Notes under the pieces: generated by a model
Database searches by the model: none
What the model was told of the DNA's origin: nothing
Seen by the model: only the letters and a program-made list of their open reading frames with translations
NCBI GenBank assembly: GCA_021739695.1
Contig: JAIPBM010000021.1
Span: forward strand, 4,472 to 68,471
Origin: Flavobacteriales bacterium
GTDB taxonomy: Bacteria > Bacteroidota > Bacteroidia > UBA10329
Length of the DNA: 64,000 nucleotides
Direction: 5' to 3'
Part shown: in pieces, positions 30,095-63,135 of the stretch
Layout: every line of letters begins with the position of its first letter
Position numbering within the stretch: the stretch's first letter is position 1
Position numbers and translations under genes: made by a program

Positions 30095-30105
30095 CAATAA
30101 GAAAA

Positions 30106-42336: not shown

Positions 42337-42420
42337 GTTGATATGTTCGTGGCTTTATGAAGCAACCGAAGCGTTCATAGGTCGTTATTGAAATGGCTGT
42401 CGCCCAGCCATTCGCTTGAA

Positions 42421-45400
42421 ATGAAAAACCGTTATTTCCGTCTGCTTTTTGCAGTGATATGTTCCATAGTTTTTTCTGCCAATAAGGCTGAGGCTTCGCA
42501 CGCCTTGGGAGCAGAGATCACGTACGAATGTTTGGGAGGCGATCAGTATCGAGTGAGGTTGGTTTTTTACCGTGATTGTGGCGGAATTGCAGCACCAACG
42601 GCCCCGGCATTGACTCTTTCATCTTCATGTGGAAATCAGAGTCTGGCAATGACATTGCAACCACCAGAACCAGCTTATCCACCGTTCGATCAGTATTTGG
42701 CGCCTTACGAACTGCCTGTTTATTGTTCTGCTTCTGATTGTGGAAGTGGTAATAATCCTGGTTTGCAAGAATACGTGTATGAGGCAACGGTAACGCTTCC
42801 TCCATGTGCAGACTGGACATTTAGCTATGACCTTTGCTGTCGCAGTGCTGCTATCAATACGATAAGCGCACCTGGTAATCAGGATATTTATGTCAGTGCT
42901 TTTCTAAATAATCAAGCTGCACCATGCAACAGTTCTCCTGAGTTTGACGTGGCAGCTCGTGGTTTCATATGCTTAAACCAAGACAATACGATTTTGGCAA
43001 CCGCCACTGATCCCGATGGCGATCTTCTTGTTTACAGCGTTTACACTCCATGGCACAATCCAGGTCAGAGCGTTAATTACACAGGCGGATTTAATCCAAA
43101 TAATCCGCTTTCTAATTCCAACTACACGTTTACTGATGGTGTGATTGAAGTTCATCCAACTTCCAATGGTCAGATCACTGTAATTGGTGTGATGGTGGAA
43201 GAGTATCGGAACGGTGTGCTCATCGGACGTGTGGTTCGAGACATGCAGGTGCGCGTGATCAATAACTGTCCACAAAATCCAGGCAACGATTTCGACATTG
43301 ATCAGGATGGGATATTTGACGGGAACAACTTCGTGATTTGTGCGAACAACGAGATCCAATTGGATGTGTATCTGAACAACACCCTTCCCAACGCCAATTA
43401 CAATATGGTTTTGGAAAATCTAGCGGATTTCCCTGGCGCCACATTCAATACAGTGCCAAGTGGAACAGCTCCAGGAGGCATTGTCGGTCAGTTCTTTTGG
43501 ACTCCTGATCAAGGTTCCATCGGCTCCAACCAAACACTCGTATTCACTGCGTTCGATGATAACTGTCCCGTGGTCGGATTTTCCAATTTCACCTACGATT
43601 TTACCATCACCGGCCTCGAATTATTAGTTGATATTGATACGGTGGCCATTTCCTGTGCGGATTCGGTTCAAATGGTTGCCACCGTTTCCAATGGATCACC
43701 ACCCTATAGTTTTCTCTGGAACGATGGATATGCTGGCGCAAGTAGATGGGTTGGGGCCGGACAATATATTGTTGAAGTTACAGACAATGAAGGCTGCACA
43801 GGAAGTGATACGATAGAGGTCTATTACGTAGATGATCCTCAAGGCGCATTTTTTGACCCAACAGGTGCGTGTGTCGATTCGGCCGTTGCTTTTGTGGATC
43901 AATCTTTCAGTAATTATCCTGCCAATTTGCCACCAATTACCATTGTTGATTGGGAATGGGATTTTGGAGATGGATCAACGCTTACAGGTGTCCAAAATCC
44001 AACCCATGCATACGATACGGCAGGATTGTATCAAGTACAACTTATTGTGACGAACGATCTTGGATGTGTGGATACTGCTTGGAGTTCCGTTTGGGCCAAT
44101 CCACCTCCGAGAGTAGATTTTGAATTTGAAAATGTGTGCACCGACACACTTTTTACCTTCACTGATCTTACTACAATAGATACTGGCCAAGTGGTCTCCT
44201 GGGCATGGGATTTTGGAGATGGAACAGCTCCAGTTCAACTTCCAAGCACTACGCATCAATTTGCCAACACAGGTTATTTCGATGTGACCTTGGCTGCGGT
44301 TTCAGATAGCGGTTGTCCCGCATATCTCACACAACAAGTGTATTCATTTCCCTTGCCGATTGGCGATTTTTCACCTACGGATGTGTGCTATGGTAACGCA
44401 TCGAGTTTTCTTGATCTTACCACAGTTTCAGCAGGTTCGGTAGAAGGTTGGCTGTGGGATTTTGGAGATGGAACGATTTCCTCCACGCTTCAAAATCCGG
44501 TTCATACATACGGAGATACAGGCGTTTTCAACGTTACACTTATCTCAACTACCGATTCTGTCTGTCGCGATACCATTACCCAAAGCGTCATGGTTCACCC
44601 AAGTCCGGTAGCCGGATTTGTGAACGATACCGTGTGCGCAGAGCTGGAAATGACCTTCACTGATACAACTACCGTTCCTTCCGGAATTATTTCAAACTGG
44701 TCGTGGTATTTTGGAGATGGAGGTGTTTCTGCGGTTCCCAATCCAATTCACGTGTATTCAATTGGTGGTCAATATACCAGTTCGCTTGTGGTTCAGTCCG
44801 ACCTCGGTTGTATAGATAGCATCGCCAAAACGGTTATTGTTTATCCGAAACCACTAGCAGAATTCACAGCTTTGGCTGCTTGTGAAAATGATGAAAACAT
44901 ATTCATCGATCAGTCGAATGTGGCTGCCGGATCTCAAGTTGTTGGTTGGGATTGGGACTTTGGTGATGGTATGGGGACATCTTCAGTCCAATTTCCAACC
45001 TACGTATATTCAGGAAGTGGCGTTTATACAGTAACGCTAATGACAGAAACCGATTTCGGTTGTCGTGATACCGTTCAGCACACTACCGAAGTGTATGACC
45101 TGCCGATTTCTGATTTCACTTTCAGTGATGTCTGTTTGTACGACCCGGTCATTTTTAATAACACTTCAAGCATTCCGTCTGGTTCAATTGTAATCAATGA
45201 GTGGGATTTTGGAGATGGTGATATTTCTTCCGCTCAGCAGCCGGTCGGGCAGCCGTATCCCGCTGCGGGATTCTATGATGTATCACTGATTACGCAATCA
45301 AATCATGGTTGCCGAGATACCTTGGTTCAGACAGTTGAGTTATTTCCTGTGCCAACAGCCATGTTCACCTTCGATTCTGTGTGTTTTCCATTTGCTACCA

Positions 45401-46668
45401 ATTTCGTTGATCTTTCGAACGTAACGGGGCTGTATAGTGTAACCGATTGGGACTGGAAGTTTGGCGATGGAATTGTGAATGCAGGAATTCAAAATCCGAC
45501 ACACGCTTACACATCGTGGGGCGATTATTCTGTTCAATTAACAGTTACGACAGACGCTGGTTGCGAGGCAGATACCACACTATCGCCAGTTCGCGTGTAT
45601 CCTAAACCGCATGCTGATTTCAGCAATGAATTGGCCAATTGTTTGAACGACACTACTGTTTTCGAAGACCTATCAACATTGGAGAACGGTCCTGAAGATG
45701 TTCTAGCTACTTGGAGCTGGAATTTTACAGATGGTTACGGAAGCAATGATCAGAATACCGATCACGTTTTTGGAACACACGGTTTTTACAACGTAATTCT
45801 GGGTGTGGAGACCAACCATGGCTGCCAAGACACAACCATCATTCCAGTAGAAATCTACCCGTTGCCAGATGTCAAATTTACGGTCGACACGAATTTAGGA
45901 TGCCAACCTTTCCGTGTTCAATTCACGGATTTGACCGAGATTCCGAATCCTTATCTACTCACAACGTGGGAATGGAATTTTGGCGATGGCCCTGGAATTA
46001 TTTCTACGCAGAATCCAGTTCATACCTATAATGACGAAGAGCTAGGCGATTTTGAGACTGGAGTTTATTCCATTTGGTTGCGGGTTACTTCGGCCAATGG
46101 CTGTGTTTCCGACACCATCTATCAGGATTACATAACGGAGTATCCGAAACCGGATGCGCTGTTCTCGGTGGATCCGATGCGCACCGAGATTCTTTTTCCG
46201 AATTTCAATATTACCGATCTAGCATCTCCCAACGTGGTCAGTTGGACTTACGAATGGGGCGATGGCTCCACTTCGAATCTTCAGAATCCTGCCCACGAAT
46301 ATGCCGATACTGGTCATTATGAGATTATCCAATACGTAGTAACGGAATTCGGATGCAAGGATACCGCCAAGGCGATAGTTATTGTAGATCCTGAGTTCAG
46401 ATTTTATATTCCTTCAGCCTTTACTCCGGATGCTGATGGCGTGAATGAAGAGTTTTTCGGTTCAGGAATTGGAATCATCGAATATCAAATGCGCATTTAC
46501 ACCCGATGGGGTCAACAGATCTTTGAATCCAATGAATATGATTTCCATTGGGATGGCACGTTCATGGGAGAGCAAGTTCAAGAGGGCGTATACGTGTACC
46601 AGTTCAATATTTTGGATATCAAAGGCGAACCTCATTTGTATCGTGGTGGTGTAACATTATTTAGGTAG
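42421..46668 (+). CDS. giant T9SS cargo protein (about 1415 aa): N-terminal domain paralogous to the 31586 gene, about 11 PKD-type repeats and a C-terminal T9SS type B sorting domain
   Basis: Signal peptide (MKNRYFRLLFAVICSIVFSANKAEA). N-terminal domain (HALGAEITYECLG ... YRDC ... EEYRNGVLIGRVVRDMQVRVINNC). Recurring W(D/E)FGDG ... NP.H.Y ... Y.V.L ... GC.D PKD units. C-terminus FYIPSAFTPDADGVNEEF ... YTRWGQQIFES ... EGVYVY. Start chosen at 42421 rather than 42388. Confidence 0.8.
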   Translation: MKNRYFRLLFAVICSIVFSANKAEASHALGAEITYECLGGDQYRVRLVFYRDCGGIAAPTAPALTLSSSCGNQSLAMTLQPPEPAYPPFDQYLAPYELPVYCSASDCGSGNNPGLQEYVYEATVTLPPCADWTFSYDLCCRSAAINTISAPGNQDIYVSAFLNNQAAPCNSSPEFDVAARGFICLNQDNTILATATDPDGDLLVYSVYTPWHNPGQSVNYTGGFNPNNPLSNSNYTFTDGVIEVHPTSNGQITVIGVMVEEYRNGVLIGRVVRDMQVRVINNCPQNPGNDFDIDQDGIFDGNNFVICANNEIQLDVYLNNTLPNANYNMVLENLADFPGATFNTVPSGTAPGGIVGQFFWTPDQGSIGSNQTLVFTAFDDNCPVVGFSNFTYDFTITGLELLVDIDTVAISCADSVQMVATVSNGSPPYSFLWNDGYAGASRWVGAGQYIVEVTDNEGCTGSDTIEVYYVDDPQGAFFDPTGACVDSAVAFVDQSFSNYPANLPPITIVDWEWDFGDGSTLTGVQNPTHAYDTAGLYQVQLIVTNDLGCVDTAWSSVWANPPPRVDFEFENVCTDTLFTFTDLTTIDTGQVVSWAWDFGDGTAPVQLPSTTHQFANTGYFDVTLAAVSDSGCPAYLTQQVYSFPLPIGDFSPTDVCYGNASSFLDLTTVSAGSVEGWLWDFGDGTISSTLQNPVHTYGDTGVFNVTLISTTDSVCRDTITQSVMVHPSPVAGFVNDTVCAELEMTFTDTTTVPSGIISNWSWYFGDGGVSAVPNPIHVYSIGGQYTSSLVVQSDLGCIDSIAKTVIVYPKPLAEFTALAACENDENIFIDQSNVAAGSQVVGWDWDFGDGMGTSSVQFPTYVYSGSGVYTVTLMTETDFGCRDTVQHTTEVYDLPISDFTFSDVCLYDPVIFNNTSSIPSGSIVINEWDFGDGDISSAQQPVGQPYPAAGFYDVSLITQSNHGCRDTLVQTVELFPVPTAMFTFDSVCFPFATNFVDLSNVTGLYSVTDWDWKFGDGIVNAGIQNPTHAYTSWGDYSVQLTVTTDAGCEADTTLSPVRVYPKPHADFSNELANCLNDTTVFEDLSTLENGPEDVLATWSWNFTDGYGSNDQNTDHVFGTHGFYNVILGVETNHGCQDTTIIPVEIYPLPDVKFTVDTNLGCQPFRVQFTDLTEIPNPYLLTTWEWNFGDGPGIISTQNPVHTYNDEELGDFETGVYSIWLRVTSANGCVSDTIYQDYITEYPKPDALFSVDPMRTEILFPNFNITDLASPNVVSWTYEWGDGSTSNLQNPAHEYADTGHYEIIQYVVTEFGCKDTAKAIVIVDPEFRFYIPSAFTPDADGVNEEFFGSGIGIIEYQMRIYTRWGQQIFESNEYDFHWDGTFMGEQVQEGVYVYQFNILDIKGEPHLYRGGVTLFR

Positions 46669-46685: not shown

Positions 46686-49600
46686 GTGGGTTTGATACAG
46701 TTCGACAAGATTTTCAGGTTTGTTTTTTCAATGATAGCGGTAATCTTGCCGTTGGCAGGATTTGGACAGTACCAGATAAACGGTAACGCCAATCAGATCT
46801 CCTGTAATTGCTACCAACTAACTGAAGATCAACCATATTCTGGTGGTTCAGTTTGGAACGTTAATCAAATCAATCTTAACACTCCTTTCAATTACAATTT
46901 TGAGGTTTGGCTCGGCTGTAGTGAGTGGGGAGCAGACGGAATTGCCTTTGTGCTGCAGCCTGTAAATGTGACACAAGGAGGAGGTTCTAGTTCTTTGGGT
47001 TATGGAGGTATAGTTCCTTCCTTGGAAGTTGAAGTTGATACCTGGCCAAATGATGTGACGATGGCTGATCCTCCACAGGATCATATCGCTATCATGAAGA
47101 ATGGCGATTCGAACCATGGTTCAGCAAATAATCTTGCAGGACCGGTTGTGGCGAGTAGCACACAACCAAATATAGAAGATTGTGCTTGGCACACAGTACA
47201 GGTTGTCTGGCAGCCTAGTGTTAATACCTTAGCTGTTTTCTTCGATGGAGTATTCCGTACGAGCTACACGGGCGATATCATCAATACTATTTTCGGTGGT
47301 TCTTCTCAGGTTTATTGGGGTTGGACAGGCGGAACGGGATCCGCCAGTGCCGATCAGCGCTTTTGCAATTCCATCCTGCCAGATTACACAATTAGCAATT
47401 CGACTACTTGCGTTGGTGATCAGATCAATTTTACGGATGCTTCGTTGACATCATCAGGGAACATCACCAATTACACATGGGATTTCGGTGATGGAACCAC
47501 GGGTTCTGGCGCTCCGGTTTCACATACATACTCTAGCGCTGGCAATTTTAACGTGAATTTGAGCATAACCACGGAAGGTTGCTCTCAAGACACCGTTATT
47601 CCAATAACCATCGACCCTACACCAGTTGTCAATCTTGGTCCTGATCTGAGTATTTGCGATGGACAGACGGTACAGCTGAACAGCCCTAATACGCTCGGAA
47701 GTGGAACATATAGCTGGTCTCCGACAACAGCACTCAGCAGTGCATCGGCTCCAAGTCCAACAAGTTCAACCGTTTCAAATATCAATTATAACCTCACATT
47801 CACGTCAAGCAATGGATGTTCTGGTTCAGATAACGTTCAGGTGATCGTAAATCCGTTGCCCGTAGCTAATGCAGGACAGGATCAGACCATGTGTGAAGGC
47901 GTTCCAGTAACCTTGCAAGCCTCTGGCGGAGTGAGTTATAATTGGTTGCCTGCAGCAAGTTTGAGCAATGCGGCCATCAGCAATCCTTCAGCTTCTCCTA
48001 TCACCAGCACCACGTATACGGTTACTGTAACGGACGCCAATAACTGCTCAAACACTGATAACGTGGATATTACAGTTGAACCCGCACCGATTTTAGATGC
48101 TGGTCAAAATCAGAATGTATGCGAAGGAGATGTGGTGCAATTGAATGCTGTCGGAACAGGAAGTTTTTCGTGGTCACCGCCAACGGCTTTAAGCAATACA
48201 TTGATTGCAAATCCGAGTGCCAGCCCTTCTGTTACAACCACGTATCTCGTAACACTAACAGATGCTAACAATTGCTCGTCAGTTGATAGTATTGTGGTTG
48301 ATGTTGATCCAATTCCGATAGCCGATTTTCCAAATCCAACGCCTGTTTGTAACGGTAATGCTGTTCAATTCAATGACAATTCAACGGGAACAATCGTCAG
48401 TTACAATTGGGATTTTGGTGATGGAACCACTGGACAGGGAACCAATCCAACACACGTTTATCCCGATCTTGGCACATACACAGTAACGCTCACAACTTTG
48501 AGCGCCAATGGTTGCAGTGCCACAGCCACAGGAACTGCTGAAGTAATTGATGGACCGATTCCTGTCTTTTCGTTGGCAGACGGCCCTGATTTTTGTGAAC
48601 AGGAGTTGCTACAGATCACCAATTCAAGTTTCGGCCCGATTGTGACCTACCTGTGGGATTTCGGTGACGGAACTACTTCAACGGCAATGGTTCCAAACTT
48701 TAGTTACTCAAGTTTTGGCACCTACACCGTTTCACTCACCGTTGGAACAGCCGATCAATGTTTTAACACTTCAACGGAAGATGTTATCGTACATCCGATC
48801 CCACAAGCGGCTTTCAGTTCAACGCCCGCATGTTTTGGAGAAGCAACTGGTTTTACAGATTCATCAATCATTCCAGAAGGAGCCGTAACGGGTTGGGAAT
48901 GGACGTTTGGCGATGGTTCTAATATTGCATACGGGCAAACGCCAACTCATACGTATACAAATTTTGGTGCGTATCAAGTTCGAATGATAGCGCAAAGCGC
49001 CATGGGGTGCAGAGATACCATTACGCAATTGGTCTACGTAAATCCAACTCCGGTTGTCACGATAGATGCAGCCGATATCTGTTTGGGAGAAGAGGCCGTT
49101 TTTGTCAATTCCACGGTACCGAATGATAATACCATTGCACTTTGGAGTTGGAATTTTGGCGATGGTCAAATAGGTAACCAAAATTCACCTGCACATCAAT
49201 ATCAGAATTACGGCACATTTACCGCTGAGCTGACAGCCACTTCAGATAGTGGTTGCATTGGCTCGGCAACCACAGAGCTTGAAGTTTATCCATATCCGGT
49301 AGCGGGTATCGGTTATTCTGAGTTTGAAGGTTGCACGCCCGTTGCCATCAATTTTGTTGATGAGAGCACCATTCCAAACAACTACACTATTGGTTCGTAC
49401 GAATGGATTTTTGGAGATGGTTCTACGGGATCCTCAGCTTCGTCTTCGCACACATATGTTACGCCTGGTATTTACGATGTAAGTTTGATCGTGACCACTC
49501 AGAATGGTGGTTGTGCAGACACGTTGACGATTGCTCAGGCCATGTCCATTTACATTACGCCAACGGCCAATTTCAATTACCGGCCTACGGATGCGACCAT

Positions 49601-50072
49601 GCTAGATCCACGCATTAGGTTCACAAACACTACTTCAAATGGAGTTACGTATGTTTGGGATTTTGGTGACGGAGGATCGTCTACTGAAGCTAACCCGACC
49701 AATTCTTATCCTGCCGAAGGCGATTATGTGGTAACACTTTTGGCTGAAAATGGAATCTGCTCTGATGCCACAACTCGAATCGTTCATATAGACCCAGAAA
49801 CCTTCATTTATATTCCGAATGCGTTTACACCAAATGGAAACAGGTTAAACGATGGATTTACTGCGAAAGGGATTGGAATTGAGAAGTTTGAGATGACCAT
49901 CTTCAATCGATGGGGAACAGAATTGTACTATACTGCTCGGATAGATGAACCTTGGGATGGAATTTACAAAGGCATGCTGCTACCATCAGACAGCTACGTA
50001 TATCGAATTGAGATCGTAGACGTGAAAGGGGAAAGTAAAAAGTTTACTGGAAGTGTGAATTTGGTGCGCTAA
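46686..50072 (+). CDS. giant T9SS cargo protein (1128 aa): N-terminal L-type lectin-like domain, SprB-type repeats, PKD repeats and a C-terminal T9SS type B sorting domain
   Basis: Legume-lectin-like blocks (ADGIAFVLQP; LEVEVDTWPND; DHIAIMKNGDSNH; W.G.TGG). Three or more SprB-type repeats. About 8 PKD units (W.FGDG). C-terminus FIYIPNAFTPNGNRLNDGF ... FNRWGTELYYT ... DSYVYRIE. Start is uncertain (46686 or the Met at 46731). Confidence 0.8.
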   Translation: MGLIQFDKIFRFVFSMIAVILPLAGFGQYQINGNANQISCNCYQLTEDQPYSGGSVWNVNQINLNTPFNYNFEVWLGCSEWGADGIAFVLQPVNVTQGGGSSSLGYGGIVPSLEVEVDTWPNDVTMADPPQDHIAIMKNGDSNHGSANNLAGPVVASSTQPNIEDCAWHTVQVVWQPSVNTLAVFFDGVFRTSYTGDIINTIFGGSSQVYWGWTGGTGSASADQRFCNSILPDYTISNSTTCVGDQINFTDASLTSSGNITNYTWDFGDGTTGSGAPVSHTYSSAGNFNVNLSITTEGCSQDTVIPITIDPTPVVNLGPDLSICDGQTVQLNSPNTLGSGTYSWSPTTALSSASAPSPTSSTVSNINYNLTFTSSNGCSGSDNVQVIVNPLPVANAGQDQTMCEGVPVTLQASGGVSYNWLPAASLSNAAISNPSASPITSTTYTVTVTDANNCSNTDNVDITVEPAPILDAGQNQNVCEGDVVQLNAVGTGSFSWSPPTALSNTLIANPSASPSVTTTYLVTLTDANNCSSVDSIVVDVDPIPIADFPNPTPVCNGNAVQFNDNSTGTIVSYNWDFGDGTTGQGTNPTHVYPDLGTYTVTLTTLSANGCSATATGTAEVIDGPIPVFSLADGPDFCEQELLQITNSSFGPIVTYLWDFGDGTTSTAMVPNFSYSSFGTYTVSLTVGTADQCFNTSTEDVIVHPIPQAAFSSTPACFGEATGFTDSSIIPEGAVTGWEWTFGDGSNIAYGQTPTHTYTNFGAYQVRMIAQSAMGCRDTITQLVYVNPTPVVTIDAADICLGEEAVFVNSTVPNDNTIALWSWNFGDGQIGNQNSPAHQYQNYGTFTAELTATSDSGCIGSATTELEVYPYPVAGIGYSEFEGCTPVAINFVDESTIPNNYTIGSYEWIFGDGSTGSSASSSHTYVTPGIYDVSLIVTTQNGGCADTLTIAQAMSIYITPTANFNYRPTDATMLDPRIRFTNTTSNGVTYVWDFGDGGSSTEANPTNSYPAEGDYVVTLLAENGICSDATTRIVHIDPETFIYIPNAFTPNGNRLNDGFTAKGIGIEKFEMTIFNRWGTELYYTARIDEPWDGIYKGMLLPSDSYVYRIEIVDVKGESKKFTGSVNLVR

Positions 50073-50075
50073 GCA

Positions 50076-50726: not shown

Positions 50727-50737
50727 GATTAAATTTC

Positions 50738-53182: not shown

Positions 53183-53272
53183 TCCTCCCGCGAACTCAAA
53201 TGTAAGAAAAACCCCAACAAGCAAGCTGCGGGGTAATTCGCTACAACGTGGTCAGTTTGAACTTATTTCGGC

Positions 53273-53983: not shown

Positions 53984-54126
53984 ACGAATTCACTTTTAAG
54001 TGTTTCGTCCAAGTTCCTGGTTTCCTGCGCAAGGTAGTAAGTAGATCGGTTTGTAAAAGAATCGCTTACAAATATCTGCGTGTAATGCGTACCTGCTCCA
54101 AAGCTACACTTGCTGTGCTTATACAG

Positions 54127-55518
54127 CTAGTGATAACCTAAGGTTTCAAGCATTCCTTTATAACCCTGTTCTTCTGAGAAAAGTTCGGATACGATCTGGC
54201 CTTCATCATCTTTATATATCACAATTTGCTTGGGTGAAGGGATGAGGCAATGTTGGATCCCTCCATAACCGCCAAGCGCATTCTGATAGGCTCCAGTATT
54301 GAAAAAGCCAATGTAAAGTGGTTTATCTTTTCTGAATTCTGGCAGATAGATATTATTCACGTGGGCTTCCACATTATAATAGTCCTGACTGTCGCATGTC
54401 AAGCCACCAAGGTTTACGCGCTCAAACGGGCTGTCCCAACGATTTACGGCAAGCATTACAAATCGTTGATTGATGGCCCAAGTATCAGGCAGCGTGGTGA
54501 TGAACGAACTATCGATCATGTTCCACCATTCCACATCATTTTGCCTTTTTTGATCAATGATGGAATATATGGCGGCACCACTTTCGGCAACCGTATAACT
54601 GCCGAATTCGGAGAAAATGTTCGGAACCGGAACATCTTCTTTTTCGCAGAAATCCTTTATCTGTCTGATTATTTCGTCTGACAAATACTGATAATCAAAC
54701 TCATCGGCCAAGGAATGTTTGATCGGGAATCCACCACCAATATTCAGCGAATCCAATGTTGGACACTCCTTTTTCAGGTCGCAATAAACACGAAGGCATT
54801 TCTGCAATTCGTTCCAGTAATAGAGACTGTCCTCAATTCCATTGTCGATAAAGAAGTGAAGCATTTTCAGTTTGAACAGCTTCTCTTTTCGAAGCACATT
54901 CATATAGTAATCCTGAATTTCGCGATGACGGATTCCTAAACGTGCCGTGTAATAGTTCGACTGTGGCTCTTCGCCCGTGGCAATTCTAATTCCAACGTTG
55001 CATTCGCGTTTTACCAATGGGCGGAAACTGTCTAGCTCCGTTAGGTTATCGAGAACAGGAAGGCTGTTGAATCCATCATTGATCAGTTGCGAGATCAGTT
55101 CAACGTATCGGTCGCGCTTGTAGCCGTTGTGAACAATGAAGTTGTCTTTGCTTATCCTGCCTTGTTCATACAACTTATGCAAAATGTAGATGTCGAAAGC
55201 GGAAGATGTTTCAAGATGAATGTCATTCTTCAATGCTTCGTTCAGTACGTACGAAAAATGTGAGCTCTTAGTGCAATAGCAATACGTGTATTGGCCCGTG
55301 TAATCGTACTTGGACATCGCATTACGGAAATAGCCCTTTGCCCGTTGGATCTGTTCCGATATTTTAGGTAAGTAACTCAGTTTCAGCGGAGTTCCGTACT
55401 GCTCAATAATGGCCATCAGGTCAATGCCGTGGAACTGAAGTTTGTTGTCAACGACCTCAAATCCTTCTTGTGGAAATTCGAAAGTCTGCTCAATAAGGTT
55501 GTAATAGTTGTTCTCCAT
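54127..55518 (-). CDS. speA: arginine decarboxylase (fold-type III PLP-dependent Orn/Lys/Arg decarboxylase family)
   Basis: About 463 aa. N-terminal YGTPLKLSYLP, a PLP-barrel and a C-terminal beta-domain GGLTCDSQD are consistent with the short Bacteroidota SpeA. Family-level call. Confidence 0.65.
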   Translation of the reverse strand: MENNYYNLIEQTFEFPQEGFEVVDNKLQFHGIDLMAIIEQYGTPLKLSYLPKISEQIQRAKGYFRNAMSKYDYTGQYTYCYCTKSSHFSYVLNEALKNDIHLETSSAFDIYILHKLYEQGRISKDNFIVHNGYKRDRYVELISQLINDGFNSLPVLDNLTELDSFRPLVKRECNVGIRIATGEEPQSNYYTARLGIRHREIQDYYMNVLRKEKLFKLKMLHFFIDNGIEDSLYYWNELQKCLRVYCDLKKECPTLDSLNIGGGFPIKHSLADEFDYQYLSDEIIRQIKDFCEKEDVPVPNIFSEFGSYTVAESGAAIYSIIDQKRQNDVEWWNMIDSSFITTLPDTWAINQRFVMLAVNRWDSPFERVNLGGLTCDSQDYYNVEAHVNNIYLPEFRKDKPLYIGFFNTGAYQNALGGYGGIQHCLIPSPKQIVIYKDDEGQIVSELFSEEQGYKGMLETLGYH

Positions 55519-55658
55519 TTTCGGGCGCTAAAGATGCAATTGATTTGTCAGTTCGAGCGGATGGCCCATTAATTCTCTGTTCATTTTCGATAAGGTTCTC
55601 ATTTATAACTCCTTTCCCTAACTCGCAGAAGACCCTGTACTTCAGATACCTTTGTACT

Positions 55659-57182
55659 ATGATAAGAGAGATAGAGAATATTGAATTGAAATTTTTGACG
55701 GTGGATGACTATCAGGAATTGAAGTCTGCCATGATTGATTCCTACACGAGTATGCCCAACTCTATATGGTCAGAAAAACACATCAAGTCCTTAATTGAGA
55801 AATTCCCTGATGGGCAAGTTGTAATAAAGGTGAACGGCCATTTGGCTGGTTGCGCGCTCTCCATTATCGTTGATTACAACAGTTTTGACGCCAATCATAC
55901 ATACAAAGACATCACAGGAAATTACACGTTCAGTACGCATACTGATAAGGGCGATGCGCTTTACGGAATCGATGTGTTCATTCATCCAGATTATCGCGGA
56001 CTCCGATTAGGAAGGCGTTTGTACGATTATCGAAAAGAGCTTTGCGAGCGGCTGAATCTTCGCGGAATTGCCTTTGGAGGACGCATTCCGAATTATCACA
56101 AGTATGCGGATAAGATGTCGGCCAAGGAATACATCGAAAAAGTGAAGCGTAAAGAGATTGATGATCCGGTTCTCAATTTTCAAATGTCGAACGATTTCCA
56201 TCCACATAAGATCCTGAAAGGATACTTGGAAGGAGATCAGGCATCGAACGAGTATGCCGTTCTGCTAGAATGGGACAACGTTTATTACGAGAAGAAAAGC
56301 ATAAGAGCCGGTGCGAACAAAAAGATCATTAGGCTTGGATTGGTGCAATGGCAAATGCGGCTCTATGCCGATTTTGACGAGCTGATGCAGCAAGCAGAAT
56401 ACTTCATCGATGCTGTTTCGGGCTATCGTTCTGATTTCGCCCTGTTTCCCGAGTTTTTCAATGCGCCTTTAATGGCAGAGAATAACCATCTGTCAGAATC
56501 GGAAGCTATTCGCGAATTGGCCAAGCACACTTCGCGCATCGTTCAGAAATTCTCCGAACTCGCTATTTCCTACAATATCAACGTCATTACTGGCAGTATG
56601 CCCGAAATAAAGGACGATCTGCTCTACAACGTGGGCTACCTGTGCAGACGCGATGGCACGATGGAGCGTTACGAAAAACTGCATGTAACGCCCGATGAAG
56701 CAAAAGTTTGGGGTATGCAAGGCGGACACGAACTGAAAGCTTTTGATACCGATTGCGGCAAGATCGGTATTCTGATCTGCTACGATTCGGAGTTTCCGGA
56801 GCTGAGCCGATTGTTGGCAGATGAAGGCATGGATATTCTATTCATCCCGTTCCTTACCGATACTCAGAATGGTTATTCTCGCGTTCGAAACTGTGCGCAA
56901 GCTCGTGCCATAGAGAACGAATGCTACGTTGCAATTGCTGGTAGTGTTGGCAATTTGCCTAAGGTGCACAACATGGACATCCAGTATGCCCAATCGATGG
57001 TTTTTACGCCATGCGATTTCTCGTTTCCGGCCAACGGAATAAAAGCAGAGGCAACTCCGAACACCGAGATGATCCTAATTGCCGATGTGGATATCGATTT
57101 ACTGCGCGAACTCAATCAGTTCGGTAGCGTGCGCAATCTGCGCGATAGGCGGAAGGATATTTTTGAGTTGAGAAAGAGGTAG
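55659..57182 (+). CDS. bifunctional GNAT N-acetyltransferase / carbon-nitrogen hydrolase (nitrilase superfamily) fusion protein
   Basis: N-terminal GNAT fold (IDVFIHPDYRGLRLGRRLY). C-terminal CN-hydrolase E-K-C triad context (LFPEFF ... KLHV ... GILICYDSEFPE). Start moved to the Met at 55659. Confidence 0.75.
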   Translation: MIREIENIELKFLTVDDYQELKSAMIDSYTSMPNSIWSEKHIKSLIEKFPDGQVVIKVNGHLAGCALSIIVDYNSFDANHTYKDITGNYTFSTHTDKGDALYGIDVFIHPDYRGLRLGRRLYDYRKELCERLNLRGIAFGGRIPNYHKYADKMSAKEYIEKVKRKEIDDPVLNFQMSNDFHPHKILKGYLEGDQASNEYAVLLEWDNVYYEKKSIRAGANKKIIRLGLVQWQMRLYADFDELMQQAEYFIDAVSGYRSDFALFPEFFNAPLMAENNHLSESEAIRELAKHTSRIVQKFSELAISYNINVITGSMPEIKDDLLYNVGYLCRRDGTMERYEKLHVTPDEAKVWGMQGGHELKAFDTDCGKIGILICYDSEFPELSRLLADEGMDILFIPFLTDTQNGYSRVRNCAQARAIENECYVAIAGSVGNLPKVHNMDIQYAQSMVFTPCDFSFPANGIKAEATPNTEMILIADVDIDLLRELNQFGSVRNLRDRRKDIFELRKR

Positions 57183-57206
57183 AGACGCAATGCTTTGCGT
57201 CTCTTT
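57181..57206 (+). terminator. weak rho-independent terminator after the GNAT/CN-hydrolase gene
   Basis: AGAGACGCA-(atgctt)-TGCGTCTCT hairpin overlapping the stop codon, followed by only TT. A second long-range inverted repeat GATGGCGCG...CGCGCGCCATC follows at about 57207-57290. Confidence 0.4.
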
Positions 57207-57368
57207 GATGGCGCGTTTCGGGTTTCCATAATTAGGGTTGGTGCAGGCATGCGTTTTGTAAACGCGCGCCATCGGATTTTGGAGGAGGGTGTACAGCAGT
57301 TAGCGGTGTTGTAGTTGGCTTTCCCTTTGATCATCGGTGTGTTTGTCAATCACCTGATGGACTTCTCT

Positions 57369-58583
57369 TCACTGGTGCAACCTATAAAAAAGCAATCGTC
57401 CTTTAATTTTCAAACAAAGTTTATTCCGATGAAAATTCTCTATTGAAAAATCGTCATAATTGTTTTTAGGAGTGGGATAATTCAATTCAAAGGTCTCATC
57501 TACAACCAACTCCATTGGTCGATTCCCGTGAATATTAAATTGCAAGACCCATAACGATATTGTGATCAATTTTTTGGAGCTTCCCCGCCCGTCCCAATTC
57601 CCTCTCGAGTAAATCAATGTCAACGTGTCTGAGCGTAAAGCATCATATACGCTATGGAATTTGTCTGAGTTAAATGGATAGTCTTTCCACGAATCGATTT
57701 GATGTTTCTGTTTGAGATTGAACTCGGATGATCTTGGCGGATAAGAATGCAACAGCAACAGCCTGCCGTTGGAATATCCCGCAAAATGGCTATTCCGTTC
57801 TAATGCCGAATAAACCTTACCCGATTTTTCCATCACTAATCTTGTGGTGTTGTGGTAGTCAGATTCATGCTCACAACAAGTGGATTGTAAGGTGTACAGC
57901 CTTTTCTTATGAACGAAAAAATCATTTATAGAAGATGTCTTGTGGGTTTGGCTGCCATCCTCCACATCCTTTATCTTCATTTTATTGGTCATTTTGACCT
58001 TTACGTAGAATCTTCCGGTAGCTGATTGACCAATATCCTGACCGTCAATTCGAAGTTTGGCATCTTCCGACATAGTGTGGGCCAAAATCAGCTCTTTGCG
58101 ATGCGTTGTGAACTTAATGTCCGTAAAGTAACCGCTGGACATCGTCAAATAATCGAAGTGGCGTACATACTCTCCGCTTAAAGTCAATTGGACCAACGAC
58201 CAGCCTTTCGGCCAGTATTCGTTTTCCTTACGAAGAATCACGGTCTGGTTGATGGTGGTGATTCCGTTGTTGGAATACTCCTTAAAACTGGGAACAACCA
58301 CATATATCTGATTGTCTCTGAAAAAGAAAGGAATTAGCCCACTAATTTTCTCATGAAAGTTGAAGTGCCCTAATTCTTGAACAGAATCCTTTTTTAATCG
58401 ACCTAAGACCAACGATGGCTCCTCCTTCACTTGATAAAGCAAATGACCACTATCGGCATTGTAGGAATGTACATACAAGGAGTCTGGGGTAGTAAAAACT
58501 AGTTCCTGTGCATGACATGTTCCACTGAGCACAGACAAGAAGCCAAGGCATAAATCGAAGAAGTAAGAAATCAACCTTTTCAT
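57369..58583 (-). CDS. hypothetical secreted protein
   Basis: Signal peptide (LGFLSVLSGTCHAQ). 404 aa with no recognisable motif. Confidence 0.5.
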   Translation of the reverse strand: MKRLISYFFDLCLGFLSVLSGTCHAQELVFTTPDSLYVHSYNADSGHLLYQVKEEPSLVLGRLKKDSVQELGHFNFHEKISGLIPFFFRDNQIYVVVPSFKEYSNNGITTINQTVILRKENEYWPKGWSLVQLTLSGEYVRHFDYLTMSSGYFTDIKFTTHRKELILAHTMSEDAKLRIDGQDIGQSATGRFYVKVKMTNKMKIKDVEDGSQTHKTSSINDFFVHKKRLYTLQSTCCEHESDYHNTTRLVMEKSGKVYSALERNSHFAGYSNGRLLLLHSYPPRSSEFNLKQKHQIDSWKDYPFNSDKFHSVYDALRSDTLTLIYSRGNWDGRGSSKKLITISLWVLQFNIHGNRPMELVVDETFELNYPTPKNNYDDFSIENFHRNKLCLKIKGRLLFYRLHQ

Positions 58584-58623
58584 AGCCTAATTATCTGAGA
58601 GGAACCATAATAATGTTCATTTT

Positions 58624-59799
58624 TCAAGGTTGTGATGTTCTTTGATGAAGGCGAACTGTCTTGATTTTGGAGATTTTAAGTGTTCCCTTTCTAGATTTCA
58701 CTTTACATCGCAACCATAACATGTTTGCATGTGTGCGCCTCCCAACGGTAGGCACTAATAATTCAAGCCAAGCAGATACTTTATAAGTGTTACGAGTTCC
58801 GTCTATTCCCAAAGTGATAGTCCCGCTCAAGGCATTACCTTCCTCGTTGTAGAAACGAACACGCTGCTCTAGAAAAGTTAATCTATCTGTAATGGTTAAA
58901 TCCTTAATGGAAACAAGCCAAGGATTTCCCCAAGCTACGGTGCTGTCCTCATAAACAAACATTGCCAAAGCGGGCTGGTCTAGAATTGCCTGCACGATTT
59001 TCGAGATCTCCGAATTTGATTGTGTCAATTGTGTGACATGAGCCAAAGAATCCATTGAAAAATAGGCATCCGCTATTTTTTCGACATTTTGAGGAATTCC
59101 TCTCTGAGTACCCGCCTTCCAATTGGAATTTTCTAAAACCCTTTCCAGCTCTTTTTCATAGTCTTTGTGAGAACCTCTTACCATTTCCAAGTTTGCAGGG
59201 GTTCCATCCTTAGTTACAATCAATTTGAACAGTACCTTTTCGTCTTGGACATTGCGAATAGTCGCCATGGCAGGACATCTTATATCCCTTGCTAAAAACG
59301 AAAGCAATTTATCATCTCCTGTCTCTCCATTGTCTGCCTTAAATTGTGGAGGGTCTTCAACAATCCACTTATAATTAGGATTACCTTCATTATCTTCTTC
59401 AGGAATCTTACCGAATTCAATATCGAAGTTCAATTTCGTCAGAACAGGCTTACACCTTTTATCTCTGTAATACTCCCATTCACCAGTCATTACTCCATCT
59501 GTGTATTGACCAATTGCAAATAGTGTATCGCTTTTCACGTCATAGAACTCAAACTTACCGTGTTCAATAAATGGATCAATGGAATTATATTCTCCTACCA
59601 AGACCCTATTGCCCGCCACATCAGTTTCGGACACTTTATAAGAGAAATTCCCCTGTTTTTCAATTTGCCTTATGAATACTGCCTCAGTCTCTGTAACTAC
59701 TTGCCAGTTTTTATTCAGGAATTGCATGGTCGTATCCTGACCATGGACTTCGACAGTTAGACAAACGAAAAGAAGGAAAAGGGAAATATATTTTGCCAT
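58624..59799 (-). CDS. secreted protein with a YwqK/MORN-like segment and a TonB C-terminal-like domain
   Basis: Signal peptide MAKYISLFLLFVCLTVEVHGQ. The start is set at 59799 because the 45 residues upstream in the track ORF precede the signal peptide. The segment CPAMATIRNVQDEKVLFKLIVTKDGTPANLEMVRGS ... LERVLENSNWKAGTQRG resembles TonB_C. Confidence 0.5.
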   Translation of the reverse strand: MAKYISLFLLFVCLTVEVHGQDTTMQFLNKNWQVVTETEAVFIRQIEKQGNFSYKVSETDVAGNRVLVGEYNSIDPFIEHGKFEFYDVKSDTLFAIGQYTDGVMTGEWEYYRDKRCKPVLTKLNFDIEFGKIPEEDNEGNPNYKWIVEDPPQFKADNGETGDDKLLSFLARDIRCPAMATIRNVQDEKVLFKLIVTKDGTPANLEMVRGSHKDYEKELERVLENSNWKAGTQRGIPQNVEKIADAYFSMDSLAHVTQLTQSNSEISKIVQAILDQPALAMFVYEDSTVAWGNPWLVSIKDLTITDRLTFLEQRVRFYNEEGNALSGTITLGIDGTRNTYKVSAWLELLVPTVGRRTHANMLWLRCKVKSRKGTLKISKIKTVRLHQRTSQP

Positions 59800-59955
59800 G
59801 GCTTTTTTCAATAATGCTTGCTTGTAACCTATGTAATCAACAGACTGAGCTTCATTTGCTGTTATTACCGCCAACTTATGGCCAAGACAACCCAAGTTGC
59901 TATGGCCAGATTTGTTTCTCCCAATATTACCCAACCCGATTCGTCATTCCAACAA

Positions 59956-59984
59956 TAAAAAAACCGACACGCAATCGCGTGGCG
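59956..59984 (-). terminator. rho-independent terminator on the minus strand (end of the deiminase operon transcript)
   Basis: Minus-strand read CGCCACGC-(gatt)-GCGTGTCGG followed by TTTTTTTAT. On the plus strand this is the A8 tract at 59956-59963 followed by the hairpin. Confidence 0.5.
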
Positions 59985-60058
59985 TCCTTCTGCGTATATG
60001 GCTTAGGTGTGTGGCTACAGTCAGGCTATAAATTGCTCTTCTGAGCATCCAAGTTTGT

Positions 60059-60226
60059 GTCTTTCAGATGAAAATTGCTGTATTTAACACCTACCTTTCA
60101 GTTCGGAACGTCAAAATTGCACTTCGGAACACAAAAGTTTCGGTTCAGAACATGAAAATTGCTCTTTTAGACAGCAAAATTGGTGTCCTGAACACCAATT
60201 TGGACGTTCAGAACACCATTTTGGGG
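60059..60226. repeat. array A: about 8 tandem 21-bp repeats with the palindromic core GTTCnGAAC
   Basis: Core copies at 60101 (GTTCGGAAC), 60122 (CTTCGGAAC), 60143 (GTTCAGAAC), 60185 (degenerate) and 60206 (GTTCAGAAC). Spacing is exactly 21 bp and the units share an AAAATTG tail. Confidence 0.7.
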
Positions 60227-60241
60227 AAGGAGTAACGAAAA

Positions 60242-60268
60242 GTTGAACATGTCGGCTACATGTTCAAC
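60242..60268. repeat. perfect 10-bp inverted repeat GTTGAACATG-(7 nt)-CATGTTCAAC
   Basis: Read directly from sequence. Sits between arrays A and B. Confidence 0.65.
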
Positions 60269-60312
60269 ATATGAGCTCAGATGGCAAATAGTTGGAATGA
60301 AAACTTCAGCAT

Positions 60313-60438
60313 CTGAAGTCAGATGTTCTTCCTATGAATCGGTATCGGTAAAAGTTGAATCCACATCTATTCAATTTGAATCCGAATTGTCAAAAGTTGA
60401 ATCCAAATGGTCAACAATTGAATCCAACTACCGGACTT
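60313..60438. repeat. array B: about 6 tandem 21-bp repeats with the core TTGAATCC
   Basis: TTGAATCC at 60355, 60376, 60397 and 60418, exactly 21 bp apart. Degenerate copies at 60313 and 60334. Ends 2 nt before the stop of the 60440 gene. Confidence 0.7.
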
Positions 60439-60439
60439 T

Positions 60440-61378
60440 TCAATCTCTCGGCAGAAAAACCTCTGCCATCATGCATCTGGCACTTCCTCCGCCCAATGTT
60501 TCAATTGTATTGAGCGAACTGTGCAGAATGCGGTTGGTCTTTTGGATGGTGGCGATCTGCTCGGGTGTGAGGCTTTCGTAGGCCTGTGTTGACATGACCA
60601 TGATTTTTTCTCCAGCCGAATTTACCACCTGAAGCATATTTCCGGCAAAGCTCGATTTCTGCGTTTCGCTAATGTATAAGATGTCTTTGTCTGTTTGCTG
60701 CAAGGATTTGACAACTGCTTTACGCTCCGCTTCATCTTTAATGCTGTCGGCACAAAGAATAGCAATTTCCTCACCCACGCTCATCATCACATTGGTGTGA
60801 TAGATAGGAAGGAGTTTTCCATCAACCTTTTGCAGAGCGTGAAAGATGACTGTTTTGTAGCCCGTGATTTCGGCCCATTCTTCCAATATTTCCGAGTTTG
60901 TTCGTTGCGACAAGCACGCGTAGGCTACCATGTTTTCGCGGTCAAGCACCAAACTTCCTGTTCCCTCCAAAAAATGTCCATCAGCTTCGGCATCCGAAAA
61001 ATCAATGACGCGGTCAATTTCGAATCCTAGATCTTCTAACGATTCTAGAATATCCATGCGTTTTTCCCATCTGCGGTTTTCGGCAAACATCGGATAAAGG
61101 ATTACCGACTCATCTTGATGAAACGAAACCCAGTTGTTCGGAAAAATACTGTCGGGCGTGCACGGTTCAAGCGTGTCGTCTACCACTATTACATTCACGC
61201 CTGCTGCACGCAGTTGTTCCACCAGTCCGTCAAATTCCTTTAACGCTTGTTGCTGAGCAGAATCGTTCGTCAATCCATCAACCTGTTGTTGGTAGTGATT
61301 GTCCTTGGCCGTTTCGGTATTCATGGCAAATGCCATAGGCCGAATCATTAATATGTTAGATGTGTTCTGTGCTGGCAT
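60440..61378 (-). CDS. amidinotransferase/DDAH-family protein (arginine deiminase superfamily), possibly a citrulline- or dimethylarginine-utilising hydrolase
   Basis: 312 aa with a C-terminal catalytic Cys context (TLGGGSARCMMAEVF) typical of the DDAH/amidinotransferase fold. Confidence 0.65.
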   Translation of the reverse strand: MPAQNTSNILMIRPMAFAMNTETAKDNHYQQQVDGLTNDSAQQQALKEFDGLVEQLRAAGVNVIVVDDTLEPCTPDSIFPNNWVSFHQDESVILYPMFAENRRWEKRMDILESLEDLGFEIDRVIDFSDAEADGHFLEGTGSLVLDRENMVAYACLSQRTNSEILEEWAEITGYKTVIFHALQKVDGKLLPIYHTNVMMSVGEEIAILCADSIKDEAERKAVVKSLQQTDKDILYISETQKSSFAGNMLQVVNSAGEKIMVMSTQAYESLTPEQIATIQKTNRILHSSLNTIETLGGGSARCMMAEVFLPRD

Positions 61379-61512: not shown

Positions 61513-62985
61513 TCATATATCCTCCCGTTGCAATGGCATACTCATGCAATGCGTGCCACCTCTTGCTCTAGAAAGTTCTGCCGATGGCAAAATGATCAGC
61601 GTATCTCCGGTGATCACGTCATCCAGTTTTTCGCCAGCGTCCATTCTTGCGTTGAAATCTTCGGCACGTATGATCTTGAATCCTCGCTTTTGAAGACTGG
61701 CATTAGTATATGTGTTCCTGTCATAACCAATGATCACACCTTCTCGAATAGCCAAGAAGTTGCAGCTATCGGTCCATTGCTCACGCTCAGTAAACGGGAA
61801 TTTTCCATTCGCATTCGGAATGATATTCACCTTTTTGCAACCGAAATCCACCTTGCTCACTTCAGCCAACAGGTCATCCAAATAGTCGAATTCTTTCACT
61901 TCCACCTTAAAACCGTCAGCCTTTTTCTTGCGGATGAATTGCGTGACGTAAACCTGCTCTTCGGGTGTTTCCATCTCATCATCCAGCATGCGTCTGAAGT
62001 CAATTTCTTCCTTCGATAGCGTGATGGCATCGCGTGTGAATGGCGCATACATCACCCAGGTATCGCGCTTTATCATGGTAAAGATCGTGTCGATGTGCAT
62101 ATAGGCACGTTCCGAAGGGATGTTCACCACCGATACCTTATCAACCAGATTCTTACTGAATAGCTGGGTCGTTAACTGATGGATGGCATTTTGCGTTGTC
62201 CGAGCACTCAATCCCACAAGTAAATGCCGCGGGCTTACCATCATCACATCGCCACCTTCAATACTCACTTCCTGCCGCTCTTTGTCCAACGAGTCGGTCA
62301 AGAAATAATATTCGTTGTCCTCCAGTTCTATGACGCGGTCAGAAAACTGGTATTTATCCCAGTTCGCCTCATCGCCAAACAAGTAGAAATAAGCGATGTA
62401 TTTGATCAGCAGAGCTTCTCGCGTTCTGCCTTTTTCCGCAGCTTTTATCAATAGCAGATGGTCATTTATCACAATGCCGATGTCGCGCGTAAAAATGAAA
62501 TTCGGAAGTGGCGCAAACAGATAATCTTCTTCGCCTTCGTAGATCCAAACGCCAGAGATCAAGGTTCGTGTCAGCGTTTCCGAATCCATCTTCATGAGCA
62601 GCATCTGCGTTTCAAAGTCACACTTTTCCATCGCGCACACGGCCGAAACCAGCAGCTGCTTGGCCAGATCGTCCTTCAACACCTGCATTAACAAGTGTTC
62701 TGCATCCAACACCTTATCTGATTTCAGATAACCGTCCTTCGTTGGCTTAAAGAAGTCAGGGTCATTCTTATCCCTTGTACGCATCACTTCTGGGTGCAAA
62801 AACCACAGCAGAACGCTCAGATACTCGTTGTATTCCTCGCGCATCTTTTCCAGATAAACGATGTCGTCATACAGTAGATCTTCCATCATTCTTGGCGCAA
62901 TTTTGCCAATTCCAGCATCAGGGCTGTGAATGATCAATCGTTGAAGTGTTCCCACTTCAGAAGAAACTCGAATATTCTTACTCAT
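61513..62985 (-). CDS. arginine deiminase-family protein (GME/amidinotransferase superfamily)
   Basis: 490 aa with the C-terminal RGGTHCMSMPL motif, which matches the arginine deiminase active-site Cys context. Confidence 0.6.
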   Translation of the reverse strand: MSKNIRVSSEVGTLQRLIIHSPDAGIGKIAPRMMEDLLYDDIVYLEKMREEYNEYLSVLLWFLHPEVMRTRDKNDPDFFKPTKDGYLKSDKVLDAEHLLMQVLKDDLAKQLLVSAVCAMEKCDFETQMLLMKMDSETLTRTLISGVWIYEGEEDYLFAPLPNFIFTRDIGIVINDHLLLIKAAEKGRTREALLIKYIAYFYLFGDEANWDKYQFSDRVIELEDNEYYFLTDSLDKERQEVSIEGGDVMMVSPRHLLVGLSARTTQNAIHQLTTQLFSKNLVDKVSVVNIPSERAYMHIDTIFTMIKRDTWVMYAPFTRDAITLSKEEIDFRRMLDDEMETPEEQVYVTQFIRKKKADGFKVEVKEFDYLDDLLAEVSKVDFGCKKVNIIPNANGKFPFTEREQWTDSCNFLAIREGVIIGYDRNTYTNASLQKRGFKIIRAEDFNARMDAGEKLDDVITGDTLIILPSAELSRARGGTHCMSMPLQREDI

Positions 62986-63135
62986 ATCGCAGAGAATTAA
63001 GCTGCGAAGTTAGCACTTGGCAGGAGTTCAAGGTTTGATGTTCAACGTTCAATGTGGATCAACTTTGAACCTTTAACCGTGAACATTGAACTATTCCTAA
63101 CTCCCTATTCCTAGTTTTGCAGAAAATACGATCAC

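Follow-up and report, generated by a model that had tools for sequence, protein, structure and literature searches.

A 21 bp-periodic, non-coding repeat tract beside the ctlX operon of a Flavobacteriales bacterium, tentatively a relocatable extragenic element

The window analysed here, a 64,000-nucleotide stretch of contig JAIPBM010000021.1 from a Flavobacteriales bacterium, includes an intergenic stretch (59800-60439) that is bounded by the stop of a minus-strand 312-aa gene, ctlX, and the ATG of the next minus-strand gene, and that carries a tandem-repeat tract of approximately 420 bp (60028-60447). The tract comprises about 20 units and keeps a 21 bp periodicity throughout, as is apparent when its sequence is set in rows of 21; it is non-coding, being neither a gene nor a gene remnant. 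One of its parts, array A, has been kept unit by unit at a different intergenic site of another Bacteroidota contig, with a 12 nt block conserved in every 21 nt and with no insertions or deletions. The reading favoured here, to which a probability of roughly 40% is assigned, is that of an extragenic repeat element capable of relocation and akin to BrickBuilt or REP/BIME, containing terminator hairpins and a phased, probably protein-bound motif.

Architecture of the repeat tract

The autocorrelation of the tract amounts to 0.52, 0.51 and 0.47 at lags of 21, 42 and 63, respectively, compared with about 0.25 at other lags, and clearly exceeds that of shuffled sequences (z = 11.4; the values for the individual parts are given in Table 1). 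It is the most periodic DNA in the whole 64 kb window. Three contiguous 21-periodic parts, designated A, M (middle) and B, follow one another between the secreted ORFan gene and ctlX. The surroundings are rich in palindromes, with 16 inverted-repeat pairs in 750 bp, and array A matches its own reverse complement with 47 bits. The two arrays of six to eight units with exact 21 bp spacing that had been described from the letters alone (hereafter the sequence-only reading) are real and in fact wider, amounting to about 20 units over 60028-60447, although they do not form one phase-locked motif. Indeed, AAAAGTTGAA is common to the last A-type units, M and B, but is shifted by 7 nt between M and B (112 = 5 x 21 + 7), so that the tract is better described as three contiguous arrays that probably share ancestry.

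Within array A, units 2-7 alternate as 42 nt dimers of an AAAATTG type and an AxxTTTC type, the repeated motif block being ACACCAAAATTG, and a repeat search recovered seven copies at spacings of 42, 21, 21, 21, 21 and 21. The palindromic core GTTCnGAAC and the AAAATTG tail that had been attributed to this array do occur, but the exact core is present in only three units (60101, 60143 and 60206) and AAAATTG four times. In array B, the core TTGAATCC is found at 60355, 60376, 60397 and 60418, that is with the exact 21 bp spacing previously noted, and its degenerate copies start at 60334 and 60439; the last of these overlaps the ctlX stop, instead of ending 2 nt short of it as had been claimed. 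The observed match count of array B was reached by none of 100 shuffles.

An array A homologue at an unrelated site

A single homologue of array A was found, at a different intergenic site with unrelated flanks on another Bacteroidota contig (locus L093). In an nhmmer search with array A, the only matches among all loci compared were the window, L093 and L081, the latter being an independent assembly of the same organism that is identical across the region (sole mismatch in 13.4 kb at 62796). The 194 nt of the conserved module align without gaps and with 80.4% identity (38 differences) to L093, and since the split no unit of array A has been gained, lost or resized. Identity reaches 80% between orthologous units of the window and L093, compared with 57% between the paralogous units of the window, which places the origin of nine to ten diverged units before the split.

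The differences between the two copies are distributed periodically: they affect 27 of the 82 sites in unit columns 9-17 (33%), compared with 11 of the 112 sites elsewhere (10%; columns 18-21 and 1-8), a bias with a Fisher P of 9e-5, or P = 0.002 when corrected for the post hoc choice of the block. The conserved 12 nt block, ACAC followed by CAAAATTG, spans the unit boundary, whereas GTTCnGAAC, which the sequence-only reading took for the core, forms the variable centre and is the least conserved part of the unit. At a spacer divergence of 33%, neutral bacterial DNA would be expected to show several insertions or deletions. Conservation with respect to L093 is highest in the 5' segment of array A (60049-60077) and in its 3' hairpin, and units 2, 8 and 9 each contain one difference per 21 nt. 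Units 1 and 9 form imperfect inverted ends, with 10 of 10 positions paired in L093 and 8 of 10 in the window, which follow from the quasi-palindromic nature of the unit. When M, B and the sequence left of array A were compared with the flanks in L093, the matches obtained were limited to a 9-mer (P = 0.04) and, within a coding region, a 16-mer similar to a B unit; both were treated as chance likenesses.

In L093, the module begins 22 nt past a gene encoding a type IX secretion system (T9SS) sorting tail, and is followed about 70 nt further on by a hairpin and then by the stop of a convergent 177-aa gene. A second non-coding element, the GC-rich hairpin X located in the window at the far end of the block described below, matches L093 positions 389-409, 70 nt from array A, at 20 of 21 positions; apart from the window and L093, it was not found in the 1.7 Mb of compared loci. 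The resemblance of its arms to GAGACCTTTGCA, the terminal repeat of BrickBuilt/ISPg1, is no more than loose. Since array A and hairpin X are common to both loci in different arrangements and with no shared genes, relocatable extragenic elements fit the data better than one orthologous locus.

The nearest relatives, whose CtlX proteins are 70-76% identical to that of the window, contain neither the array nor the ORFan genes: in L082 ctlX and a convergent GNAT/CN_hydrolase gene lie 31 nt apart, and in L001 a decarboxylase gene directly follows ctlX. From these gene orders, the repeat tract and two ORFan genes form a lineage-specific 3.26 kb block. No homologous array was detected near ctlX in 80 genome loci and six metagenome loci, and the other periodic matches in the ctlX loci of relatives correspond to coding repeats or unrelated short repeats. 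A lack of conserved periodicity in related genomes had been named as an outcome that would count against the feature; periodicity is indeed missing at this locus in L001, L082, L083 and L086, but since the array A homologue elsewhere retains it intact, the feature is not refuted. In many Flavobacteriia, short unrelated tandem repeats of 7, 8, 14 or 16 nt, often arranged as inverted blocks, occur at the borders of the arginine deiminase (ADI) and ctlX genes (L009 5906-5990, L019 4776-4915, L042 5908-5985, L044 6926-6990, L045 5402-5466 and L026 5696-5790), and simple repeats seem to have arisen recurrently in the ADI/ctlX region.

Extragenic element, phased array or RNA

Three sites on the minus strand combine a GC-containing hairpin with a U-run, as predicted Rho-independent terminators do: 60268..60242 (UUUU), 60218..60181 (AUUUU) and 59981..59968 (T7). 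The first is the inverted repeat of part M, which had been reported as a perfect 10 bp repeat and whose arms are in fact 11 nt long (60242-60252 and 60258-60268, with a 5 nt loop); judged from its predicted fold, it is probably the first terminator of the operon transcript. The second, built from array A units 8-10, has predicted folding energies of -26.8 kcal/mol on the minus strand and -21.1 kcal/mol on the plus strand (-28.6 and -29.2 kcal/mol for the L093 copy) and is terminator-like on both strands, and the homology with L093 stops exactly there. The third agrees with the intrinsic terminator previously placed at about 59956-59984. Given the two extra terminator-like hairpins between the ctlX stop and the final terminator, the operon transcript may end before array A, approximately 200 nt past the ctlX stop, and the 3' untranslated region (UTR) of roughly 480 nt suggested by the sequence-only reading is doubtful.

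Array A forms a discrete module, approximately 195 bp long and composed of seven direct 21 nt units followed by the hairpin from units 8-10. According to the favoured reading, this module would have relocated at least once, being present at another intergenic site in a second Bacteroidota genome and absent from the present site in the nearest relatives. Such an element would settle in the 3' regions of genes, where its hairpins could end or insulate transcription from either side, in this case between the ctlX operon and the acquired genes. The 12 nt block appears to be under purifying selection at a spacing of exactly 21 bp, or two helical turns, which points to repeated recognition by one protein, either a host factor or one specific to the element.

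To our knowledge, extragenic repeat elements have barely been described in Flavobacteriia, and BrickBuilt is the only well studied case known in the phylum. BrickBuilt, from Porphyromonas gingivalis (Bacteroidota), is a MITE (a transposable element of the miniature inverted-repeat type) with a minisatellite, strictly intergenic and composed of tandem 23 nt direct repeats without spacers (PMC4596501). Its units are at least 89% alike, with conserved and variable positions, and form long stem-loops, and hypothetical genes have been wrongly annotated across it; it possesses a leader and a tail with 12 nt terminal inverted repeats matching insertion sequence (IS) elements and is present in 19 copies per genome (PMC4596501). 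The tract resembles it in its approximately 20 tandem 21 nt units without spacers, its intergenic position in both known copies of array A, its occurrence in the same phylum, the alternation of conserved and variable unit positions, the long stem-loops and the spurious gene calls. In contrast to BrickBuilt, the 21 nt units are 57% alike and subject to periodic purifying selection between genomes; neither a leader or tail nor an IS-like inverted repeat was seen, and a single copy was seen in 64 kb. The tract is not a member of the BrickBuilt family as defined, but on the favoured reading it would be an element of the same general kind in Bacteroidota.

The REP/BIME and BOX elements of Enterobacteria, Pseudomonas and pneumococcus are mosaics of imperfect palindromes and tandem sub-units located past gene 3' ends, which form hairpins in transcripts, act as terminators or mRNA stabilizers and bind host proteins. 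They occur in tens to hundreds of copies per genome with periods other than 21 bp, and REP sequences are associated with a RAYT (IS200/IS605-like) transposase. The tract shares with REP/BIME the clustering of short imperfect palindromes past gene 3' ends; it differs in its 21 bp period. A single copy was seen in 64 kb, and no RAYT gene among the scanned open reading frames (ORFs) of the window. Up to 42.3 kb, these comprised all ORFs with 150 aa or more, and beyond 50.7 kb most ORFs with 120 aa or more; the scan left out 42388..46668 and 46686..50072, both large, and the 221-aa 50076..50741. No rep, par, LytTR, transposase, RAYT-type or IS gene was found among them.

Several observations weigh against a relocatable element. 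Array A and hairpin X each occur once within 64 kb, a count that covers the window only; no target-site duplication, leader or tail was seen at array A, and the scanned ORFs offer no transposase or RAYT-type gene. At 57% identity, the units are far more diverged than those of BrickBuilt, in which mismatches do not exceed 11%. Moreover, periodic purifying selection together with the absence of any insertion or deletion is not expected of a purely selfish element; a phased array with a function, or an RNA, would account for it equally well or better. Finally, a locus-specific role is hinted at by the position of the window's two densest GTTCA/TGAAC clusters, which flank one and the same operon.

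A serious alternative, although less probable than the favoured reading, is a phased DNA-binding array in A and/or B, in which each 21 bp would offer a protein one site, all sites facing the same side of the helix; by DNA looping it may bridge to the operon's promoter spacer with its GTTCA/TGAAC lattice, or it may form a nucleoprotein filament or insulator. The period of exactly two helical turns, the 12 nt conserved block alternating with a 9 nt free spacer whose length has remained fixed despite 33% divergence, and the 9 bp core plus 12 bp spacer geometry of array B are all consistent with such an array. In the promoter spacer, GTTCA occurs at 63026, 63040 and 63047 and TGAAC at 63066, 63080 and 63087, with spacings of 14 and 7 repeated after 40 nt, and TTGAAC is found five times in 150 bp compared with 0.21 expected, a post hoc statistic. 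This block and the array are the two densest GTTCA/TGAAC clusters in 64 kb. On the other hand, the L093 copy of array A is enclosed by the 3' ends of convergent genes, with no promoter to regulate, and the copy in the window is placed downstream of the operon and upstream of a terminator; the scanned ORFs nearby include no regulator, rep or par gene. The motifs of A, B and the promoter block also differ beyond a shared pentamer, and the promoter block is absent from relatives, in which the spacers are unrelated.

Plasmid iterons and centromere arrays (R6K, P1, F and parC) consist of direct repeats of 17-22 bp with 21-22 bp spacing and a conserved core next to a free spacer, and the tract likewise presents phased direct repeats in several to ten copies on one helix face. 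Unlike them, it is situated in a chromosomal housekeeping context, with no rep or par gene among the scanned ORFs and no match in plasmids or phages (blastn of the tract), and no AT-rich unwinding region was identified at the tract. LytTR-type sites (AgrA, ComE and PlnC) are 9 bp direct repeats separated by a 12 bp spacer, in two or three copies upstream of a promoter. Array B reproduces this geometry, as TTGAATCCA plus 12 nt with a 21 bp period, but it has four to six copies, which run up to a stop codon at the 3' end of a gene; the scanned ORFs include no LytTR gene, and the LytTR consensus xxxGTTxxx is not matched by the TTGAATCC core. Membership of the iteron, centromere and LytTR classes was rejected on gene context.

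Somewhat further-reaching, and rather improbable in our judgement, is the idea that array A represents a phased array with a function, of a type without a described counterpart in Bacteroidota, in which a 12 nt motif recurs every two helical turns over seven to nine units, is read cooperatively by a protein, either on DNA or on a sponge-like RNA, and is exchangeable between loci as a module. On DNA, this could possibly be a chromosomal iteron-like or insulator filament, perhaps bridging to the lattice at the operon promoter. 

The unit-by-unit periodic constraint, the exact spacing and the relocated module set array A apart from an ordinary decaying satellite. If a protein-binding or RNA function holds true, it would provide a compact handle on the insulation or regulation of transcription around horizontally acquired genes in uncultured marine or freshwater Flavobacteriales.

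An RNA element is an equally serious, and equally tentative, alternative; like the phased array, a small RNA had already been raised in the sequence-only reading. Array A would then be a plus-strand small RNA of about 155 nt (~60066-60222) or part of a structured 3' UTR, its at least seven A/C-rich 12 nt motifs (ACACCAAAAUUG) acting as a sponge or multi-site binder and ending in the long terminator hairpin, and B and M would constitute a structured 3' UTR of ctlX. The conserved module does end exactly past a stable hairpin with a U-run, its best-kept parts are the 5' segment and the 3' hairpin noted above, together with units 2, 8 and 9, and it occupies intergenic regions typical of small RNA genes. 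Both strands of the region fold better than shuffled sequences (z = -4.0 and -5.6); strong and equal folding on both strands is, however, what palindrome-rich DNA gives, and not a strand-specific property. From the two sequences, RNAalifold proposed that units 3 and 6 of the plus strand are joined by four compensatory pairs, all adjacent, but their number lies within substitution-randomized nulls (P = 0.08-0.19), so that covariation in this two-sequence alignment is not significant, and the single-sequence minimum free energy structures are not conserved between the window and L093, with 11-16 pairs broken; conserved RNA structure was consequently dropped as evidence. A search of Rfam 15 assigned the region to no known RNA family, returning only three chance-level matches (18-20 bits compared with gathering scores of 45-80; E = 0.7-0.9), and the exact Bacteroidetes -7 box TAnnTTTG is lacking on either strand within 59751-60500.

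It is less probable still that the whole tract is a functionless local minisatellite, generated by slippage or duplication of 21 and 42 nt in slack DNA brought in with the acquired genes, and now decaying. Unrelated tandem repeats of 7-16 nt are, indeed, common at ADI/ctlX borders, and M and B have no homologue in plasmids, phages or the compared loci. Pattern scans with phased motifs likewise retrieved unrelated tandem repeats: three phased TTGAATCC cores in viral contigs retrieved five perfect 21 nt tandem repeats, all unrelated to B, and the phased AAAATTG pattern, which is permissive, retrieved at least 120 unrelated 21 nt satellites from metagenomes, with no homologue among the matches listed; the hairpin pattern retrieved nothing from viral contigs. 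Array A, on the contrary, has been maintained unit by unit in L093 under periodic constraint and without indels, and its paralogous units are old yet still in phase. A neutral minisatellite is accordingly unlikely for array A, and possible for M and B.

A coding origin, either as a decayed gene for a heptad-repeat protein (21 nt being seven codons) or as a small plus-strand heptad peptide, is very improbable and was rejected, being largely refuted by six-frame reading, codon-position tests, pN/pS, Pfam and HMMER. What speaks for it is the 55-codon ORF with a conserved ATG across array A, its 109-codon counterpart on L093 (protein P0125) and the matching of its translation to real heptad-repeat proteins. 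The properties expected of such a gene or pseudogene, namely an open frame, a third-position excess and pN/pS < 1, were not found: each frame has stops somewhere and none is open across the whole tract, the differences between the window and L093 in the 55-codon ORF fall 13, 10 and 9 times at codon positions 1, 2 and 3, and pN/pS amounts to 1.9 for this frame, compared with 0.73-1.4 for the remaining five. Likewise, variation among units shows no three-base periodicity (P = 0.37 for A, 0.90 for B and 0.51 for all units), and Pfam recognized nothing in any open stretch of the tract. Compared with 1.84 billion representative proteins by HMMER, the translation retrieves heptad-repeat proteins such as P0123 (E = 1e-29) and P0128, but these matches are driven by the repeat, being either genuine fibre-like proteins matched through it alone or obvious mistranslated satellites; P0125, with 64% identity, is the sole true homologue. 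The non-coding nature of the stretch, as proposed in the sequence-only reading, is hence upheld, and homology to a degenerated gene fragment, which it had listed as a refuting outcome, is unsupported by codon positions, among-unit variation and pN/pS. In practice, gene callers turn such arrays into false heptad-repeat proteins, as in the case of P0125 and several database entries. As judged from protein sequence alone, P0124, P0126, P0129, P0130, P0132, P0134, P0137, P0143 and P0144 are database 'proteins' that resemble translated 21 nt satellites, with units such as NSKLGVQ or NSWIAVR repeated many times.

Gene neighbourhood and other features of the window

Table 1. Coordinates of the repeat tract, its hairpins and the neighbouring features in the window.
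Feature	Position	Strand	Basis or remark
Gene-free intergenic stretch, ctlX to 391-aa ORFan gene	59800..60439		ORF list and Pfam
Array A, 10 units x 21 bp, consensus CAAAATTGCTGTTCTGAACAC	60028..60237		Lag-21 autocorrelation 0.56, z = 9.7
Conserved module of array A, ~195 bp	60032..60225		Aligns with L093 128-321
55-codon open frame across array A, heptads KIAVFNT..., conserved ATG	60068..60235	+	Repeat by-product, not a gene
Long hairpin from array A units 8-10, stem ~17 bp	60175..60223		16 pairs on minus strand; A-run 5', T-run 3'
Perfect 11 bp hairpin GTTGAACATGT / ACATGTTCAAC, then UUUUCGUU	60238..60268	-	-14.2 kcal/mol, z = -5.6
Middle array M, ~2.5 units of 42 nt, palindrome-rich	60238..60342		Repeat search, z = 2.9-3.2
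Array B, TTGAATCC(A) cores (four perfect, two degenerate) with a variable spacer of 12-13 nt after each	60334..60447		z = 8.4
Predicted intrinsic terminator, GC-rich stem 59968-59981, then T7	59957..59987	-	Upstream of promoter region of 391-aa gene
Lineage-specific 3.26 kb block: hairpin X, 404-aa gene, 391-aa gene, repeat tract	57183..60439		Absent from nearest relatives
Hairpin X, GC-rich, GAGACGCAATGCTTTGCGTCTC	57181..57204		Directly after GNAT/CN_hydrolase stop, far end of lineage-specific block
404-aa secreted ORFan gene	57369..58583	-	Sequence searches
391-aa secreted (signal-peptide) ORFan gene, downstream of repeat block	58624..59799	-	ATG at 59799, not 59800
ctlX, citrulline utilization hydrolase, DDAH fold, 312 aa, upstream of repeat block	60440..61378	-	Pfam, NCBIfam
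Arginine deiminase-like gene, first in operon, precedes ctlX	61513..62985	-	Pfam ADI; NCBIfam arcA-related below cut-off
GTTCA/TGAAC cluster, lattice of 7 nt multiples, operon promoter spacer	63026..63091		Lineage-specific

The absence of genes from the intergenic stretch, noted previously, is corroborated by an independent gene call on L081, which likewise places none there. The product of ctlX is assigned with confidence, matching DDAH_eukar in Pfam (E = 1.9e-110) and citrull_CtlX in NCBIfam (431 bits compared with a cut-off of 334). The 391-aa protein belongs to no Pfam or NCBIfam family; in a comparison with 5.8 billion proteins it matched, besides itself, only one, weakly and over part of its length (33% identity over 27%). 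The neighbours of the tract are the ADI gene, ctlX, the two secreted ORFans and genes for GNAT/CN_hydrolase, a decarboxylase and FtsK, and the remaining scanned ORFs of the window are ordinary Flavobacteriales chromosomal genes (cbb3 oxidase, housekeeping enzymes, T9SS cargo and FtsK); the earlier remark that gene content offers no explanation for the stretch stands.

The cumulative GC skew of the window peaks at approximately 50000-58000, and gene orientation changes from mostly plus to mostly minus at about 50 kb, beside ftsK. A replication terminus suggested by this turn was discarded, since a search allowing up to three mismatches revealed no dif site of the E. coli type. Elsewhere in the window, 31586-36487 encodes a 1633-aa T9SS cargo protein (Ig_7, PKD and CHU_C domains), situated in a stretch whose G+C content is clearly raised (0.48-0.54, compared with about 0.44), and 25569-29987 holds a 1472-aa ORF with no Pfam family at E <= 1e-5, followed by a tRNA-Arg (30021-30095) and two MORN-repeat proteins.

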